From Chloroflexota bacterium (lineage in GTDB: Bacteria > Chloroflexota > Ktedonobacteria > Ktedonobacterales > Ktedonobacteraceae), in contig VBHS01000291.1 in the NCBI GenBank assembly GCA_005881295.1, forward strand, positions 1-24,149: a stretch of DNA of 24,149 bases, in the 5' to 3' direction. This document shows, piece after piece, positions 4,404-18,329 of this stretch (position 1 is its first letter; each line of letters begins with the position of its first letter). Below the pieces are notes generated by a model. That model saw only the letters and a list, made by a program, of their open reading frames with translations. It was not told the DNA's origin and made no database searches. Both the position numbers and the translations under genes were made by a program.

Positions 4404-6896
4404 CTATTTATCAAGTGCTACAACACCCAACATATGCCCCTTCACCAGGGGCACACCTTTTTTTGCCCGTGTAAATGCTTTTAGCTCAACCGCTTTGATG
4501 GCTGTGACCTGTTCACCATCTTCGTTTTTCCAGGTCAGCAGCAGGTGATCTTTCTCATCTATAATCATCGTCAGCAACACGCGGTCCCTGTCAACAAGTT
4601 CAGTAGTCACGATACCCGCCGTCGCACGCCCCTTCGGGGGATACTGGCTCAATGGCACCTTCTTGCCCAGCCCGCTCTCGGTGACCACCAGCAAGCTCAG
4701 GAAATTGCCACTGTCAGTAGAAATCTCACTATCCAGGTAGGAGGCGCTTACAACTTGAGCATCCGGCCCTAAAGCAATGGCAGCCACTCCCTGGCCCACA
4801 CGTCCCTGCGCTCGCAATGCATCATCTTTGAATCGCAAAGTCTGCGCGGTATTCGTCGTCACGAAGTATTCACCCTGCCCTCGAGAAAGCAGTGCAACAG
4901 CAACAGCGTCACCGTCAGCCAGTTTCATGTCCTGTAAACCATCAACGTCCGCGGTCTTATAATCGCTCAAAGGTGACTTCTTCACTTTCCCCATTCTGCT
5001 AAAGGTAACGAGATAGCGATCCTCATCATAGTTCTCTACAGGCAACACGGTCACTATCTCTTCGCCTTGAGCCAAACCCAACAATTTGCGCACAGGCTCG
5101 CCTTTTGCCGAACGATTTCCGGTTGGGATGCGATGAGCCGCGATTTGGAAGACCCTTCCGCTTGAAGAGACACACAAAACATAATCTTGTGACGTGGCTG
5201 CGACGACCTGGCGCAGTTGCTCATCGCCGCGAACAGGCGTATAGATCGCTGCACCATTTTTTCCCCTGGGAACAAACGTATCTGCTGGCAGCGCTTTGAG
5301 CGTACCAGCACGTGTAAAGGCAATAGCGAGGGGCTCTCGTTCGTGCAGACTGGCAACTTCTTTAATGGGCTCATGAACCTGGCCCTCCACGTCGATAGTT
5401 GTCCGGCGCTCGTCGCCAAATTGCTTGATGAGCTGTTGCATCTCTTTCTTCAAAAGCAGCAGCATCGCCTTGCGATCTGAAAGGAGGTGTTGTAACTCGC
5501 CGATCCGTGTCTGCAATTCTACTTTTTCCCTGGCGTATTTGCTTGCGTCTAGCCGCGTTACCTGGGCCAGCGTCATCGAGGCAATAACTTCCGACTGGAT
5601 AAGTGTGAGCTTATACGTCTTCTCGATAACCTGGCGAGCAGCCGCCCGATCCTCGGCCTGCTGGAAAATCTTGACAATCTTATCAGCGTTGGCCGCACCA
5701 ACAATCAACCCCTCGACGATATGCAATCGTTCCTCCGCCTTGCGCAATTCAAACTGCGTTCGCCGAGTTAATACGTCCATCTGGTGCGTATTCCAGTAAT
5801 TGAGCAGATCGATCATACCCACCTGTTTGGGTTGTCGCGCTGCCTGCATCGGCTCGCCGAAGAGAAACACTATCTGGAATGAAAGGGCAATTTGCAGATC
5901 TGTTTCGGCGAAGAGTTGCGAAAGCGCCTGTGCAGCATCGGCATCTTTCCGCAGCTCCAGCACAATGCGCATCCCTTTCTCAGTATCGCTTTCGTCGCGC
6001 ACATCAGGCAACAGGCCTTCCAACTTACGGGCGTTGATCGCCTTTACAATAGATGCCTTGACCTTGTCTCTCCCTATAGGAGGAATCTGCGTAACGATCA
6101 GCGAGCGACTGCGCGGCGTATCTTCCAGCCGTACCTCTGCACGTGCAATGATGCGTCCCTTGCCAGTGGCAAAATAGTCTTTTATGCCGTCAACGCCGAT
6201 GATTCTTCCCCCCTGGCAAAAATCTGGCCCTTGAATATACCTCATAAGCTGCTCGACATCCATGTTCGGTTGATCAAGCAGGGCGATACAGGCCCGCAAT
6301 ACCTCAACGAGGTTATGTGGCGGAATATTGGTGGAGAGGCCAACGGCGATGCCACTCGATGGATTGACGATAGGTGGAATCCTGCCTGGCAAGTAATCTG
6401 GCTCTAACACTTTCGGGTCTTGTTTATAGCTCGGATGCTGGGGAACTGTGTCGCTCTCCATATCGGCCATCAACGCTTCAGCCAGGGGAGAGAGGCGCAT
6501 CTCTGTATAGCGGTAGGCGGCAGGAGCATCGCCATCCTCACTTCCCATGTTCCCCTGTCCCTCAATTAAGGGATAGCGTAAGGTAAAAGGTTGTGCCATA
6601 CGTACAGCTGCGTCATATACCGAGGTATCGCCGTGTGGATGATAGTTACCTAAAATCAGGCCCACCACCTCTGCGCTTTTTACTGTGGGGCGAGTGGATA
6701 GGTAACGAGCCGCTCGCATTCCTGCTAGAATCCGCCGCTGCACCGGTTTTAAACCGTCTCGTGCATCAGGTAATGCGCGGTCAGTGACAACGGAAAGCCC
6801 ATAGGTCGCGAAAGCCTGGGCCATGATAACGGAGAAATCCTCTTCGCGGATAATTCCCGTTTCTACTGTAGTGCTATTATCGGTTATACGAGCCAT
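4404..6896 (-). CDS. parC: Type IIA topoisomerase subunit A, ParC-like (GyrA paralog without GyrA-box)
   Basis: DRALPDARDGLKPVQRRIL, YHPHGD, AAYRYTE (catalytic Tyr130), C-terminal beta-pinwheel repeats; no QRRGGKG and no acidic tail. The parC versus gyrA symbol is inferred. Confidence 0.85.
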   Translation of the reverse strand: MARITDNSTTVETGIIREEDFSVIMAQAFATYGLSVVTDRALPDARDGLKPVQRRILAGMRAARYLSTRPTVKSAEVVGLILGNYHPHGDTSVYDAAVRMAQPFTLRYPLIEGQGNMGSEDGDAPAAYRYTEMRLSPLAEALMADMESDTVPQHPSYKQDPKVLEPDYLPGRIPPIVNPSSGIAVGLSTNIPPHNLVEVLRACIALLDQPNMDVEQLMRYIQGPDFCQGGRIIGVDGIKDYFATGKGRIIARAEVRLEDTPRSRSLIVTQIPPIGRDKVKASIVKAINARKLEGLLPDVRDESDTEKGMRIVLELRKDADAAQALSQLFAETDLQIALSFQIVFLFGEPMQAARQPKQVGMIDLLNYWNTHQMDVLTRRTQFELRKAEERLHIVEGLIVGAANADKIVKIFQQAEDRAAARQVIEKTYKLTLIQSEVIASMTLAQVTRLDASKYAREKVELQTRIGELQHLLSDRKAMLLLLKKEMQQLIKQFGDERRTTIDVEGQVHEPIKEVASLHEREPLAIAFTRAGTLKALPADTFVPRGKNGAAIYTPVRGDEQLRQVVAATSQDYVLCVSSSGRVFQIAAHRIPTGNRSAKGEPVRKLLGLAQGEEIVTVLPVENYDEDRYLVTFSRMGKVKKSPLSDYKTADVDGLQDMKLADGDAVAVALLSRGQGEYFVTTNTAQTLRFKDDALRAQGRVGQGVAAIALGPDAQVVSASYLDSEISTDSGNFLSLLVVTESGLGKKVPLSQYPPKGRATAGIVTTELVDRDRVLLTMIIDEKDHLLLTWKNEDGEQVTAIKAVELKAFTRAKKGVPLVKGHMLGVVALDK

Positions 6897-6898
6897 TT

Positions 6899-9022
6899 TT
6901 AGACATCCAGTTCCTTAATTTTGCGCGAATGCTCAGCCAGGAAGACACGCCGGGCCTCAGCATTTTCATCTTCCATCAATTCCTTGACCAGCCGCGCCGC
7001 CAGTACTCCATCCTCCATGGAAACACGTTTAAGTGTACGCCTGGCAGGATCAAAGGTAGTATCGCGCAATTCCTTCGGATTCATCTCACCAAGACCTTTG
7101 AAGCGCTTGAACTCCAGTCCTCCAGCATCTGCATGCGTCTTAATGAATTGCAGACGAGCTTCATCATCGAGCAGCCAGATGGTCTTACCCTTGTACTTGA
7201 CCGAGTACAGCGGAGGGCAGGCGATGAATACATGACCCTGCTCTATCAGATCACTAAATTCCTGGTGAAACAACGTGAGCAACAGACACTGAATGTGTAA
7301 GCCATCCACGTCAGCGTCAGTGGCGATAATGACGCGGTCAAATTTTAAACGGCTAATGTCAAAAGAATCCCTCGTTCCTGTTCCTAAAACATTGATGATA
7401 GTACGGATCTCTTCATTTTCGACGATACGCCGCAAATCGGCCTTGGCGACATTGAGCGGTTTCCCTTTGAGCTTCAGAATCGCTTGAAACTCCGAAAAAC
7501 GTCCCTGACCCGCGCTGCCACCGGCGGAGTCACCCTCCACGATGAACAGTTCAGCACGCTCGGGATCATTGGAGTTACAACGCAAGAACTTTTTTGAAAG
7601 CGTCGTGTCGATCAATTCGCCATTCTTCTTGTTACCGCCTCTGGCCAGCTCTTCTACCAGCTGCGCCTCGTTGCGAGCTTTCTGCATCTGCAGGATCTTC
7701 TTCAGCCACTCTTTTCCCGCGGTAGTATTGCTCTCAAACCAATCTTTCAAGCCCTCATCAACAACCGAGCGCACAATCCCCTCAACTGGTGCATTGTTGA
7801 GGCGATCTTTGGTTTGCCCCTGGAACTGCGGGTTAGTCAGCTTGACCGAGATCACCGCGTTCAGTCCTTGCTGGATAACTTCTGGTCGGAAACCATCCTC
7901 TTCACGGTTTTTGATGATCTTCCATTTCAGTGCGTAGTCATGGACAACTTTTGTCAGAGCAGCCTTAAAGCCTGTTTCATGTACCCCTCCATCACGTGTA
8001 CGAACGGCATTAGCAAAACTGTAGATGGTAGTCTTATAACCGGTCGTTGGCTGTAATGCTACCTCAACCTGCACACCATCCTTTTCTTTAGCTATACCAA
8101 GCACCTGCTTAAAAAGTGGGGCGCTGGTACTGATGGAAAGCTCTCTCACATAGTCCGGTAAACCGTCACGAGAATAGAATGTGCGGCTCACTTGCTTATT
8201 TTCAGCATCATCCCAGGCATCCAGCTGGAAAGTGACGCCGCGATTCAGGTATGCCGCCGCCTTCAGGCGGCTGTCGATGGCCTCCAGGGGATAGTAAGCC
8301 TCGTCGTCAAAGATCGAACGGTCAAACAACCACCGGAGTTGCGTTCCATGCAACTTTGGGTCACATGGAGCAATATGATGCGGCAGCGCTACTCCACGGC
8401 TGAATATTTGCGTAAACTTCTGACCATCCTTCCAGATCGTCAATTCTAGTTTCTCGGATAGAGCGTTGATTACCGTTGCGCCTACACCATGTAGGCCTCC
8501 CGCCGTCTTATATACACCTTCGGAAAACTTACCACCCGAGTGAGGAACCGTCAGAATAACGGTAGCAGCAGGCAGGTAGTCACCCTGGTACAACATGGGG
8601 TCAAAAGGCATTCCTCTGGCCTCGTCCTTCACCGTGACCCAGCCTTCCTGATCAATATTCATCCAGATATGCTTACCATATCCCGCGACCGCTTCATCTA
8701 CAGCGTTATCAAGAGCTTCCCAGATGAGGTGGAGCAGCCCAGACGTAGAAGTTGAGCCAATGTACATTCCTGGACGATGGCGGATTGCCGCAATCCCCTC
8801 CAAGACCTGAATATCAGCTGCACTATATGACGCACTCTTTTTTGTTCGCGCCCCAGGTTTTTTCTCTATCGTTGCAGAACTAGATTCTCTTTTAGATGAC
8901 GATTCTCTCTTGTTAGTTTCTTTTTGTTCATCTGTTTTATGCGGAGCAAAAAGCGTAAGTTGTTCCTGCGTGCTGTCATGATCATCTCGTATTGTTGCTA
9001 AGATTTTGGAGGAACGTGACAT
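6899..9022 (-). CDS. parE: Type IIA topoisomerase subunit B, ParE-like
   Basis: IQVLEG...RPGMYIGST, EALDNAVDE, HSGGKF, GGLHGVG, EGDSAGGS, LKGKPLN, DADVDG, RFKGLGEMN; RGMP with ParE-type Met; stop lies 2 nt before the parC ATG. Confidence 0.85.
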   Translation of the reverse strand: MSRSSKILATIRDDHDSTQEQLTLFAPHKTDEQKETNKRESSSKRESSSATIEKKPGARTKKSASYSAADIQVLEGIAAIRHRPGMYIGSTSTSGLLHLIWEALDNAVDEAVAGYGKHIWMNIDQEGWVTVKDEARGMPFDPMLYQGDYLPAATVILTVPHSGGKFSEGVYKTAGGLHGVGATVINALSEKLELTIWKDGQKFTQIFSRGVALPHHIAPCDPKLHGTQLRWLFDRSIFDDEAYYPLEAIDSRLKAAAYLNRGVTFQLDAWDDAENKQVSRTFYSRDGLPDYVRELSISTSAPLFKQVLGIAKEKDGVQVEVALQPTTGYKTTIYSFANAVRTRDGGVHETGFKAALTKVVHDYALKWKIIKNREEDGFRPEVIQQGLNAVISVKLTNPQFQGQTKDRLNNAPVEGIVRSVVDEGLKDWFESNTTAGKEWLKKILQMQKARNEAQLVEELARGGNKKNGELIDTTLSKKFLRCNSNDPERAELFIVEGDSAGGSAGQGRFSEFQAILKLKGKPLNVAKADLRRIVENEEIRTIINVLGTGTRDSFDISRLKFDRVIIATDADVDGLHIQCLLLTLFHQEFSDLIEQGHVFIACPPLYSVKYKGKTIWLLDDEARLQFIKTHADAGGLEFKRFKGLGEMNPKELRDTTFDPARRTLKRVSMEDGVLAARLVKELMEDENAEARRVFLAEHSRKIKELDV

Positions 9023-9063
9023 CTACTCTGATACCTCTCTTTGATTGCATGTACTGTTCCCTC

Positions 9064-9092
9064 AGCATACAGCCTTCATTCATAAAAGTCAA
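9064..9092 (-). promoter_or_regulatory. sigma70-type promoter of the parE-parC operon
   Basis: Minus strand TTGACT (9092-9087), 17-nt spacer, TATGCT (9069-9064). Confidence 0.6.
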
Positions 9093-9288
9093 GAGAAATT
9101 TTGGTCAAATGTTCTAGCAATTCATAAATTCATTTTGCCCTTGCCAATTAGCTCAAGTGCAACAGAATTACTGCCCAGAGCGTAATAACATCTATAGATG
9201 TGAAACCAAAACTACCAAAAGTTGCATGACAGTATCTTTGAGGTATTATACTTAAAACTACAGAGTAGATACGAAACGATCTGTGAAC

Positions 9289-9326
9289 AAAAATGATGAG
9301 ATAAAATAAAAATGATGAGATAAAAT
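9289..9326 (+). repeat. Perfect tandem 19-bp duplication
   Basis: AAAAATGATGAGATAAAAT x2 (9289-9307, 9308-9326) in an AT-rich divergent intergenic region. Confidence 0.9.
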
Positions 9327-9471
9327 ATCGCTTAATTTACCTCATCGATTCTTTTTCTGTTACAAAGCAAATAGATGTAATTCCATATATGAAGATAAGA
9401 TTTAGGATACTTCACAGCACGAATAAAAGCTAAGTTAATTATTATTTCGATGTTTTTTAATAGAATATCTA

Positions 9472-9500
9472 TTGTTATTTGTATGCTAATCCATTATAAT
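9472..9500 (+). promoter_or_regulatory. sigma70-type promoter of the XRE-TPR gene
   Basis: TTGTTA (9472-9477), 17-nt spacer, TATAAT (9495-9500). Confidence 0.55.
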
Positions 9501-9579
9501 TTTGTTAAATTTAGAATCCCGTACGGCGTCTTGATAACTTTTTAGTGACATAATTACAAAGGAAGGATGAAATGGAGGT

Positions 9580-10947
9580 ATGCCACGTCCCCCCAAGCAT
9601 GTTCCTCCAGATACTCTTGGAGGCCGCATTAGAGCTGCGCGAGAGAATTTAAATCTCTCGCTCAAGACAGTCGCTGCTGAACGTTATAGTACGAGTTTGA
9701 TTTCGCAGATCGAAAGAAATCGGGTTGAACCATCTCAGGAGAGTTTAGAATTTCTAGCAGAAAAATTACACTTGCCATTAGCAGACCTCCAAACTCTGGC
9801 GCAACAACAACGAGAGGCTGATAGTGATACTTGCCAGTATAAGTTCAATGAAGAACAATTGAGCGTCGCATTGGAGTTGCTTGCAAGTAAGCATCCACGA
9901 GAGGCTCTGGACTCGTTAAGTACGGTAAACATGGCCCAGACTTCAGCGTCGCTGCGTTGGCGTTTAGCGGCTGTTCGTGGCCAATGTTACTTTCAGCTAC
10001 GGCAATTTCTCAATGCCCAGAAAGATTTTCTTTATGCCGTTACCGAACAGCCAGAGATTTTACCCGCAGATCAACGTCTCGTCGTCTTAGAATTGCACCT
10101 TCATCTCGCCGCTACACTGCGCGAATTGAAACAACCCGATGCTGCATTAGAGCAATATAACATTGCCCTACGTATGATGAATGCCACTACATCCCTTCAC
10201 TACGTTGCTGAAGCGAATTGGGGGGTGTCCCTCATCGCCTTCGAGCAGGCTAAAAAGCCCTTAGATACCTCGCATTGTCCTCGTTGCAAAGAAGCGCAGT
10301 TACAAGATGCGTTTAATCATGCAGTAAACGCATGTATCCTCTATCGTTCTATTGGAGAATCACTGCGTGCAGCCCTGTTAACCTGCCAGATTGGACTCAT
10401 CGAGCAGGAATCTGGGAACCGAGATGACGCTCGCCAGCACTTCCAGGGGGTTCTCTCTGCCTGGTTGCCAGAGCTAGAAAAGAGAGCTAATGCACCTGAG
10501 ATGGAACAGCGCGGATTGCATGAATTGGCGAATGTTGTCTCTGCCGCTGCCTGTTCCCTGGCTGGTCTTGAACTCGAAATGGAGAACTACTCAGAAGCGC
10601 TGAAATATGTTCAACAGGCACAATATGCAGGTCAGATGAGCTATACTCTGAGAAAGGCCGAAGCAGCAATCATGCTTGGTCGTGTCCTCGAATCGATCGA
10701 TGTCCTTGATCCCGCGGCAGAAAGAGCATTCCGTGATGCCATCACTCTGCTGGCACCCACCGATCGCATTGCCGCACAGATACGAGCGCACGATGCTCTT
10801 GGTCGCCATTTGCTTAAAAAAAGGGAGACAAAGGCAGGTGAAATAGAGCTTGACATAGCTCGTTCACTCTCTGATGTAGCATCAGCCTTTAGCAGTTCCT
10901 CTATCTTTGTAGAGGACGAAACAGATGAGATTGCTTTGAAAGTGTAA
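9580..10947 (+). CDS. XRE/Cro-family HTH transcription regulator with C-terminal TPR-like helical repeats
   Basis: LGGRIRAARENLNLSLKTVA...SLISQIERNRVEPSQESLEFLAEKL HTH, then Ala/Leu-rich helix pairs (GQCYFQLRQFLNAQKDF, LAATLRELKQPDAALEQY). Confidence 0.85.
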   Translation: MPRPPKHVPPDTLGGRIRAARENLNLSLKTVAAERYSTSLISQIERNRVEPSQESLEFLAEKLHLPLADLQTLAQQQREADSDTCQYKFNEEQLSVALELLASKHPREALDSLSTVNMAQTSASLRWRLAAVRGQCYFQLRQFLNAQKDFLYAVTEQPEILPADQRLVVLELHLHLAATLRELKQPDAALEQYNIALRMMNATTSLHYVAEANWGVSLIAFEQAKKPLDTSHCPRCKEAQLQDAFNHAVNACILYRSIGESLRAALLTCQIGLIEQESGNRDDARQHFQGVLSAWLPELEKRANAPEMEQRGLHELANVVSAAACSLAGLELEMENYSEALKYVQQAQYAGQMSYTLRKAEAAIMLGRVLESIDVLDPAAERAFRDAITLLAPTDRIAAQIRAHDALGRHLLKKRETKAGEIELDIARSLSDVASAFSSSSIFVEDETDEIALKV

Positions 10948-16752: not shown

Positions 16753-17025
16753 GTCAGCGACTCCACACCTGAATGGGTGGGGGCTTGCTCCGGCAAGCCC
16801 CGATGCTGAGCAGTCCCCAGGTGTAAGTACCTGGTAGCCCTTCGCGAAGAATGCATAGGCACTCCGGGGTGGCCTTCCAGTCCCGGACCCTGCGGCGCGT
16901 CGTTAAACAGCGAGATGGGGTTTCAATCGCAGTGCGGCTCGCATCCAAAGGAAACCTTCGCAGAAGTTGGACGAGGAAAACTTTACCCGGCGCTTGCCGG
17001 AGGCCCGAAAGGGCAAGAACAGAGG
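16753..17025 (+). ncRNA. omegaRNA scaffold of the IscB (OMEGA) system; guide is the 5' flank (about 16733-16752)
   Basis: About 280-nt structured non-coding leader of iscB: GTCAGCGACTCC...GGGGCTTG start, GGGGCTTGC/GCAAGCCCC hairpin, CACTCCGGG...CCCGGA, GTTAAACAG...CAGTG, GACGAGG, CCGGCGCTTGCCGG and GCCCGAAAGGGC hairpins. 3' end approximate. Confidence 0.8.
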
Positions 17026-17033
17026 ACTCAGCC

Positions 17034-18329
17034 ATGTCGTACGTCTTTGTGATTGATCAGGAGAAGCGGCCCCTCGATCCGGTTCATCCCGGTCGAGCCC
17101 GCAAGCTCCTCTCATCTGGGAAGGCAGCCGTCTACCGGCGATTTCCCTTTGTCCTGATTCTCAAGCATCCAGTTTCTGAAGCACATCCACAGCCCCTGCG
17201 CCTGAAAATTGATCCAGGGTCCAAGACAACGGGGCTCGCCGTCCTCAACGATACATCAGGACAGGTGCTATGGGCTGCGGAGTTGGTTCACCGGGGAGAA
17301 GAGGTCCACCAGGCGCTGCAAAAACGGGCTGGCGTGCGTCGAGGTCGCCGTTCTCGGCATACGCGCTACCGGGCGGCCCGCTTTAGCAATCGTCGGCGCA
17401 AACGCGGGTGGCTTGCTCCTTCGTTGTGCTCACGGATGCAAAATGTGCAGACCTGGACCAGGCGGCTGATGCGTTGGTGCCCGCTGGGTGCCATTTCCTA
17501 TGAGGCGGTGCGCTTCGACACCCAGGCCATCCAAAACCCTGAGATCAAGGGAGTCGCCTACCAACACGGAACTCTCGCGGGGCTAGAAGTTAAAGAGTAT
17601 CTTTTACTCAAATGGCGACATAAATGCGTCTACTGCCAAAAAGGAGATATCCCGCTCGAAGTGGAACATATCGTGCCCAAAAGACGTGGAGGCAGTGACC
17701 GGATCACCAATCTCACCCTGGCCTGCGAAGCGTGCAATCAACAAAAAGGCTCCCAAACCGCCCAGGCATTTGGCTTTCCCCACCTCCAGGCACAGGCCTT
17801 GCAACCATTAAAAGACGCAGCAGCAGTGAACTCGACACGTTGGGCGCTCTATGAACGACTCAAAGCCACAGGACTGCCGATCGAGGTCAGTACGGGGGGC
17901 CAGACAAAATGGAATAGGAAACAACGCGGCATTCCCAAGAGTCATTGGCTCGACGCTGTATGCGTGGGGCCATCTACACCAGAGCGGGTCCAGTGGCAAC
18001 ATGTTATCCCCCTGCTTATCACAGCCAGAGGCCGACAATGCCGCCAGCTTTGTAATGTTGACGGATGGGGATTTCCAAGGAGCCGCCCGAAAGGGCCAAG
18101 CAAAGTCTTTGGATTCCAAACGGGGGATATGGTTCAGGCAGTCGTCACCAGAGGGAAAAGGATGGGTACATATGTTGGACGCGTTGCCATTAAAACTGAT
18201 GGGTACTTTAAGATTACCGGCACACATGGCATGGTGGAGGGCATTCATGCTCGCTATTGCTCGCCTCTACATCGCGTTGATGGTTATGAGTATCAAAAAG
18301 GTTCGGCGGCGCTTCCTCCCCAGATGTGA
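17034..18329 (+). CDS. iscB: RNA-guided endonuclease IscB, 431 aa
   Basis: PLMP-type N-terminus (RPLDP..PGRARKLL), RuvC-I KIDPGSKTTG, Arg-rich bridge helix RRGRRSRHTRYR, RuvC-II YEAVRFD, HNH CVYC...EHIVPKRRGGSDRITNLTLACEACNQQK, RuvC-III SHWLDA; start at ATG 17034 behind AGAGGA. Confidence 0.95.
   Translation: MSYVFVIDQEKRPLDPVHPGRARKLLSSGKAAVYRRFPFVLILKHPVSEAHPQPLRLKIDPGSKTTGLAVLNDTSGQVLWAAELVHRGEEVHQALQKRAGVRRGRRSRHTRYRAARFSNRRRKRGWLAPSLCSRMQNVQTWTRRLMRWCPLGAISYEAVRFDTQAIQNPEIKGVAYQHGTLAGLEVKEYLLLKWRHKCVYCQKGDIPLEVEHIVPKRRGGSDRITNLTLACEACNQQKGSQTAQAFGFPHLQAQALQPLKDAAAVNSTRWALYERLKATGLPIEVSTGGQTKWNRKQRGIPKSHWLDAVCVGPSTPERVQWQHVIPLLITARGRQCRQLCNVDGWGFPRSRPKGPSKVFGFQTGDMVQAVVTRGKRMGTYVGRVAIKTDGYFKITGTHGMVEGIHARYCSPLHRVDGYEYQKGSAALPPQM

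Follow-up and report, generated by a model that had tools for sequence, protein, structure and literature searches.

How does a decatenating topoisomerase find the intertwined sister DNA left behind by replication? To our knowledge, an answer exists for E. coli alone, where MukB, SeqA and FtsK are involved; most bacteria are without these proteins. A locus from a soil member of the Chloroflexota family Ktedonobacteraceae raises the question of whether a replication protein, the beta sliding clamp (DnaN), could serve as the guide instead. The window analysed here is a contig of 24,149 nucleotides (VBHS01000291.1) from a soil metagenome-assembled genome (MAG; 3.18 Mb, 456 contigs, 77% complete). 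Database proteins nearly identical to those encoded here bear names that assign the organism to Ktedonobacteraceae. On its minus strand it encodes a type IIA topoisomerase B subunit with an unusual N-terminal tail, and the original prediction read the pentapeptide QLTLF within this tail as a clamp-binding motif. Answering the question requires identifying the enzyme, establishing what the motif is and how widely it is kept, and weighing other explanations for its conservation.

The B subunit (P0001, 707 aa) occupies positions 6899 to 9022 and contains HATPase_c, DNA_gyraseB, Toprim and GyrB_C domains (PF02518, PF00204, PF01751 and PF00986), all above Pfam cut-offs and ordered as in the GyrB/ParE superfamily. 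Its closest PDB chains are B subunits of gyrase and of Topo IV, with E-values of 1e-147 to 1e-138. The partner A subunit (P0002, 830 aa) lies at 4404 to 6896 on the same strand, its start codon 3 nt past the B-subunit stop, and carries a DNA_topoisoIV domain and GyrA_C blades. This adjoining B-A order is maintained in the relatives checked. Neither protein reaches any of the NCBIfam equivalog thresholds for GyrB, GyrA, ParE and ParC, and they are therefore not filed as ParE/ParC members. For P0001 the score is 578 (cut-off 900) with parE_Gpos and 447 (cut-off 723) with parE_Gneg; for P0002 it is 524 (cut-off 813) with parC_Gpos and 433 (cut-off 629) with parC_Gneg.

A further feature is the GyrA box, which is needed for supercoiling. 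At the corresponding position in P0002 (5253 to 5273, minus strand), VPRGKNG stands in place of QRRGG[K/R]G, and the site is variable among orthologs (for instance, KPRAKNG and TPRGKDE). The genome's other GyrA, on contig C88, and the GyrAs of two complete relatives (G014 and G016) keep QRRGGRG. Since P0002 has no GyrA box and a separate, boxed gyrase is present in the genome, P0001 and P0002 most likely form a non-supercoiling, Topo IV-like enzyme beside a true gyrase, P0001 being the second, Topo IV-like paralogue. The label of ParE or decatenase given in the original prediction is reasonable in view of this partner, but we infer decatenase activity solely from the absent GyrA box, and P0001 itself falls below the family cut-offs for both GyrB and ParE. 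The pair resembles the Topo IV of E. coli and Firmicutes (ParE/ParC) as a two-subunit type IIA enzyme encoded by adjoining genes, with an A subunit devoid of a GyrA box, coexisting with a true gyrase in one genome. It differs in scoring under the NCBIfam cut-offs for both ParE/ParC and GyrB/GyrA, and in belonging to an isolated Chloroflexota clade whose identity to other GyrB/ParE proteins does not exceed 45%.

An exhaustive profile-free search found the P0001 clade to be isolated: among 50%-cluster representatives, one shares 66% identity and another 50%, and the others, generic GyrB/ParE proteins, reach at most 45%. Among 301 sampled Chloroflexota genomes, the clade was found in 18 of the 21 from Ktedonobacteraceae and in two further families only; a search of three sister families within the same order yielded no member.

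The feature that sets P0001 apart is its N-terminal tail (residues 1-65; 8828 to 9022, minus strand). The conserved core begins at Y66 (YSAADIQVLEG), leaving an extension of 65 residues, the length that had been estimated from a first inspection. The tail is polar and charged (37% charged residues, 38% S/T/Q/N/H and 12% hydrophobic) and is predicted to be disordered. In an AlphaFold2 model based on 63 aligned sequences, which has a mean pLDDT of 83 and a confident enzyme body, residues 1-60 show a pLDDT of about 30 and no secondary structure, in keeping with the disordered, charged surroundings originally described for the motif. The tail has no counterpart in the PDB, where homologues align from about residue 60 onward.

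Translation of 6899-9022 places Q21-L-T-L-F25 at 8948 to 8962 on the minus strand (codons CAA CTT ACG CTT TTT), exactly where it had been reported, and within the tail this candidate motif is the island with the strongest conservation. It fits the beta-clamp-binding consensus QL[S/D]LF or Qxx[L/M]F, although we know of no clamp-binding motif that has been experimentally defined in Chloroflexota. A match to QL[STD]LF is expected by chance about 2e-4 times per 65-aa tail and in about 2% of cases per whole 24-kb window, and the crude ORFs of the same genome, 1.36 million residues in all, contain the pattern four times. Chance occurrence is thus not rare in the proteome, so the presence of the motif is by itself weak evidence and the weight of the argument comes from conservation. 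Of the other three occurrences, one is a QLSLF that forms the very last residues of a helix-hairpin-helix protein, one lies in an ORF that matches no family, and one is a QLDLF in Pol I, in the linker that joins its 5' nuclease domain to its 3'-5' exonuclease domain. Pol I is a clamp partner named in a 2022 review (PMC9690074).

Conservation was assessed in several ways. The best 120 clusters at 90% identity, with overall identities of 81-96%, have QLSLF in 102 cases, QLTLF in nine, QLALF in three and QLSFF in one; the remaining five are either gene calls cut short or forms with a single changed residue (QLSMF, QPSLF). QL[S/T/A]LF or a near variant is therefore kept in about 115 of these 120 clusters, and in about 35 of 39 Ktedonobacteraceae species genomes. 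A first set of 21 species orthologs contained 12 strict matches, four near variants (QLSFF, QLSLL and QYSLF twice) and two weak ones (SLSFF and EFSFL). About three orthologs in this set (L011, L017 and L019) have lost the motif, which, together with the few weak forms, indicates that it is dispensable in some lineages. One ortholog of this first set (L012) comes from an unpublished genome (G024); it contributes one QLSFF to the tally, and none of the conclusions would change without it. In a second set, all 18 species genomes keep the motif, counting one QYSLF and one QLSFF. Among them is a genus of high GC content in which nothing else of the tail can be recognised.

Related motifs near the N-terminus also occur in more distant members of the clade, where they precede long disordered linkers. 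The 66%-identical lineage, an abundant uncultured Chloroflexota group, begins MVTKQ[T/P/A]SLFDE, with KQ[T/P/A]SLF at residues 4-9 followed by a Pro/Ala/Val-rich linker of about 75 residues; KQxSLFDE persists even where the remaining tail has changed. Members of family f30 carry DPDPQQLVM[A/S]WD, followed by a Lys/Ala-rich tail of 150-250 residues, and more distant forms begin QLRLT or QLEL[V/T]. Relatives from family f31 (L077 and L078) have no recognisable motif. The genome's own GyrB paralogue (contig C373, 42% identical) also carries an N-terminal tail, and no such motif was found in it or in its orthologs. Likewise, QL[STDAEN]LF was absent from every part of 150 diverse 50%-cluster GyrB/ParE representatives.

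If the motif binds DnaN, the receiving pocket should be present in these bacteria. A search for dnaN (TIGR00663) found no gene in the MAG itself, a miss that reflects the incompleteness of an assembly estimated at 77% and not a true absence. DnaN was found, with its gene adjoining recF, in two genomes of the same genus (G002 and G004) and in the complete family members G014 and G016. Its peptide-binding pocket appears canonical at key positions: compared with the E. coli beta clamp, R152, R176, L177, P242, N320, Y323, V360 and M362-P363-M364 are invariant (E. coli numbering), and several pocket positions are substituted (T172A, H175F and R246Q). A loose clamp-binding pattern applied to DnaE and the Y-family polymerases of this genome and its relatives detected no clear DnaE motif, and one DinB with QFDLL is too weak a match to define a lineage consensus.

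In E. coli, clamp clients with a clamp-binding motif include Pol II, Pol IV, Hda, MutS/MutL, Pol I and ligase. The form that predominates in the Ktedonobacteraceae, QLSLF, is that of the C-terminal clamp-binding motif of B. subtilis PolC, which binds DnaN with a KD of about 7 uM and remains functional after transplantation into DnaE (PMC12309361). The ktedonobacterial motif shares with such clients the pentapeptide class, the location in a flexible, exposed segment and the character of a conserved island. It is unlike them in its carrier, a type IIA topoisomerase B subunit, and in its position about 20 residues from the N-terminus instead of at the C-terminus.

Conservation and disorder show that the motif has a function, but they do not identify what it binds. 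It could be a short linear motif for a partner other than DnaN, such as SMC-ScpAB, FtsK or another chromosome-segregation factor, or an intramolecular latch on the ATPase or A-subunit domains that regulates closure of the N-gate. E. coli Topo IV provides a precedent for other partners, being targeted through a contact between ParC and MukB and following SeqA (PMC3950513, PMC7803763), whereas the candidate element described here is on the B subunit. The tail also joins the N-terminal arm that is exchanged between ATPase protomers, and it holds two more conserved islands, suggesting more than one role. One of these, MxRSxK, occupies residues 1-6 (9005 to 9022, minus strand). The other, the basic RxKK island (RTKK here; residues 59-62, 8837 to 8848, minus strand), directly precedes the ATPase N-terminal arm and could contact DNA or the partner protomer; both islands may add further functions. 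Against a different partner, the sequence agrees exactly with the clamp-binding consensus in its strongest form, and the variants in sister lineages (QxSLF and QLVMAW) are typical of clamp motifs. We also know of no bacterial hub other than the clamp that recognises QLSLF. With regard to a latch, the AlphaFold2 model leaves the tail undocked from the folded body. Overall, we regard a target other than DnaN as unlikely.

A second explanation holds that the motif is conserved without binding anything, as a feature of translation initiation or mRNA structure, as a stability or degradation signal, or through descent without function. The orthologs do come from one family and a few relatives, so that shared ancestry inflates the counts, and a few species have lost the motif. 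However, in a set of 38 tails from which all pairs at 60% identity or more had been removed, mean identity is 0.87 in the motif columns and 0.40 elsewhere in the tail, and the motif is the best five-residue window of the tail. The expectation of the original prediction that QLxLF would be conserved while its flanks diverge therefore holds among orthologs. The linker between motif and core, about 40 residues here, ranges from about 30 to about 95 in relatives, a threefold variation, and the motif itself moves between residues 5 and 35, lying 50-105 nt into the ORF. Synonymous variation occurs at all five motif codons (CAA/CAG, CTT/CTC/TTA, TCA/TCG, TTT/TTC), which argues for selection on the peptide and not on the RNA, and an RNA-level element was rejected on this ground. 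Related motifs persist, moreover, in lineages that are only 60-66% identical. A conserved feature that binds nothing is accordingly quite improbable, and neither it nor an alternative partner explains the exact match to the strongest consensus together with clamp-like variation in sister lineages.

All of this presupposes that the tail is part of the protein. An in-frame TAG lies immediately 5' of the ATG at 9022. Between M1 and L74, which is already within the conserved core, the window offers no alternative in-frame start (ATG, GTG or TTG); the tail must therefore be translated if the enzyme is to possess its N-terminal arm. Relatives agree: the MxRSxK island follows directly after an in-frame stop in at least 12 species genomes, which fixes the start codon, and peptide-level conservation extends through the tail. 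Soil RNA libraries offer a weak hint in the same direction. Within the compared region (8000-9600), short soil metatranscriptome contigs extend over 8287-9027, a stretch that takes in the motif as well as the start codon, and one contig of 151 nt spans 8877-9027, with two of its three differences listed, both synonymous and in tail codons. Such libraries can contain DNA, and these contigs prove neither transcription nor the 5' end. A sigma-70-like promoter match (TTGACT-17-TATGCT; 9064 to 9092, minus strand) lies about 40 nt upstream of the ATG, in a region where the scan returned no more matches than in shuffled sequences. A true start downstream of the motif, which would leave tail and motif outside the protein and for which the later-starting database gene calls (651-680 aa) might be cited, is ruled out for practical purposes by the stop and start context, the absence of in-frame alternatives and the starts in other species, and is scarcely credible.

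We therefore consider it rather probable, from comparative sequence evidence, that QL[S/T]LF in the tail serves as a clamp-binding motif, tethering the enzyme to beta clamps behind replication forks. Under this clamp-tethering reading, the gene pair at 4404-9022 (minus strand) would encode a Topo IV-like B2A2 enzyme whose tail acts as a flexible tether, with the motif docking in the hydrophobic cleft that separates domains II and III in a clamp loaded on DNA. The linker of about 40 residues would keep the ATPase N-gate, the entry point of the transported duplex, near the clamps that remain on newly replicated DNA. Strand passage would then be concentrated on precatenanes, favouring decatenation and precatenane removal behind the fork. 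Since each enzyme would have two tails and each clamp dimer has two clefts, binding could be bivalent. E. coli Topo IV likewise acts behind the fork, through its other partners MukB and SeqA (PMC7803763, PMC3950513).

The individual parts of this proposal are familiar. Both the enzyme class and the motif class are known, and their combination appears to be undescribed, with strong comparative evidence in its favour. Among the papers that could be searched, no bacterial type IIA topoisomerase was found described as a clamp partner, in agreement with the initial remark that no such enzyme with a clamp motif was known, and nothing relevant was found on Ktedonobacter topoisomerases. The partner table of the 2022 review has no type IIA topoisomerase among bacterial clamp partners, and it lists Topo II alpha for PCNA (PMC9690074). 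The idea of coupling a type II topoisomerase to a sliding clamp is thus shared with eukaryotic PCNA partners, among which that review places Topo II alpha, but the clamp, the motif class (a PIP box as opposed to QLxLF) and the evolutionary origin all differ, and the likeness is at most an analogy.

A broader reading can be offered more tentatively. Clamp docking of a decatenating type II topoisomerase may be a recurrent, independently evolved route to newly replicated DNA in bacteria that do not have MukB or SeqA. In the Chloroflexota, this route would run through the N-terminus of the B subunit, with a motif that would be ancestral in the clade (QLSLF, QxSLF, QLVMAW). Through it, the N-gate's capture of the sister duplex would be linked to the clamps behind the fork. 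This possibility is less secure than the clamp-binding role of the motif itself.

If true, the ktedonobacterial enzyme would illustrate a simple recruitment route for a Topo IV-like enzyme, reduced to a sharp prediction of one pentapeptide and one pocket. A topoisomerase would then join the bacterial clamp interactome, in parallel with the link between PCNA and Topo II reported in eukaryotes.

Immediately upstream of the topoisomerase operon, the window has a gene for a 455-aa HTH (XRE-type) and TPR regulator (9580-10947, plus strand), which is transcribed divergently from the operon. The same strand carries genes for a 205-aa protein that consists solely of PolX-type HhH modules (HHH_8 and HHH_5; 537-1154) and for a 492-aa IscB-like protein with RRXRR and HNH domains (16851-18329).

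The true GyrB paralogue of this genome is encoded on another contig (C373, L002:214-2238, minus strand). It too has an N-terminal tail, of about 50 residues, which begins with a conserved M-A-K-T-R-E-S start and includes Asn-Gly repeats (NGNGNGG); a clamp-like motif is absent from this tail. Among the B-subunit homologues of the more distant Chloroflexota family f30, a D-P-D-P-Q-Q-L-V-M-A/S-W-D peptide is conserved (loci L079, L080 and L081, whose start codons are uncertain). In these three homologues, a Lys/Ala-rich, histone-H1-like tail of 150-250 residues separates the peptide from the ATPase core.

Several type IIA topoisomerase genes are matched in pieces. In 10 relatives (G005, G009, G013, G017, G025, G026, G028, G029, G032 and G035), the GyrB paralogue is matched in 2-3 pieces within open frames of 850-1394 aa, a pattern consistent with inteins in gyrB. 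The gyrA gene of the window's own genome (C88:6112-8220, L044) is matched in two pieces with a TAA inside, while the Topo IV-like A subunit of the relative G014 (G014:C1:10496729-10499199, L040) gives two overlapping pieces with a TGA inside. For each of these two split genes, a frameshift, an intein or a sequencing error is possible.

Elsewhere in the window's genome, two further proteins carry peptides resembling the clamp-binding motif. The Pol I gene (C22, L045:6045-7346, minus strand) encodes an acidic/Pro-rich linker of about 150 residues between the 5' nuclease and 3'-5' exonuclease domains, and the QLDLF inside it is a candidate for a clamp-binding motif in an internal position. In the linker region the reading frame is also broken, with the ORF at 6045-7346 overlapping the next one (4588-6102); the cause is a frameshift or faulty assembly. 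A 286-aa helix-hairpin-helix (HhH) protein, its family assigned at the HhH level, is encoded on contig C75 (L046:97-957, plus strand). It ends exactly in QLSLF-COOH, a putative C-terminal clamp-binding motif of the textbook type.
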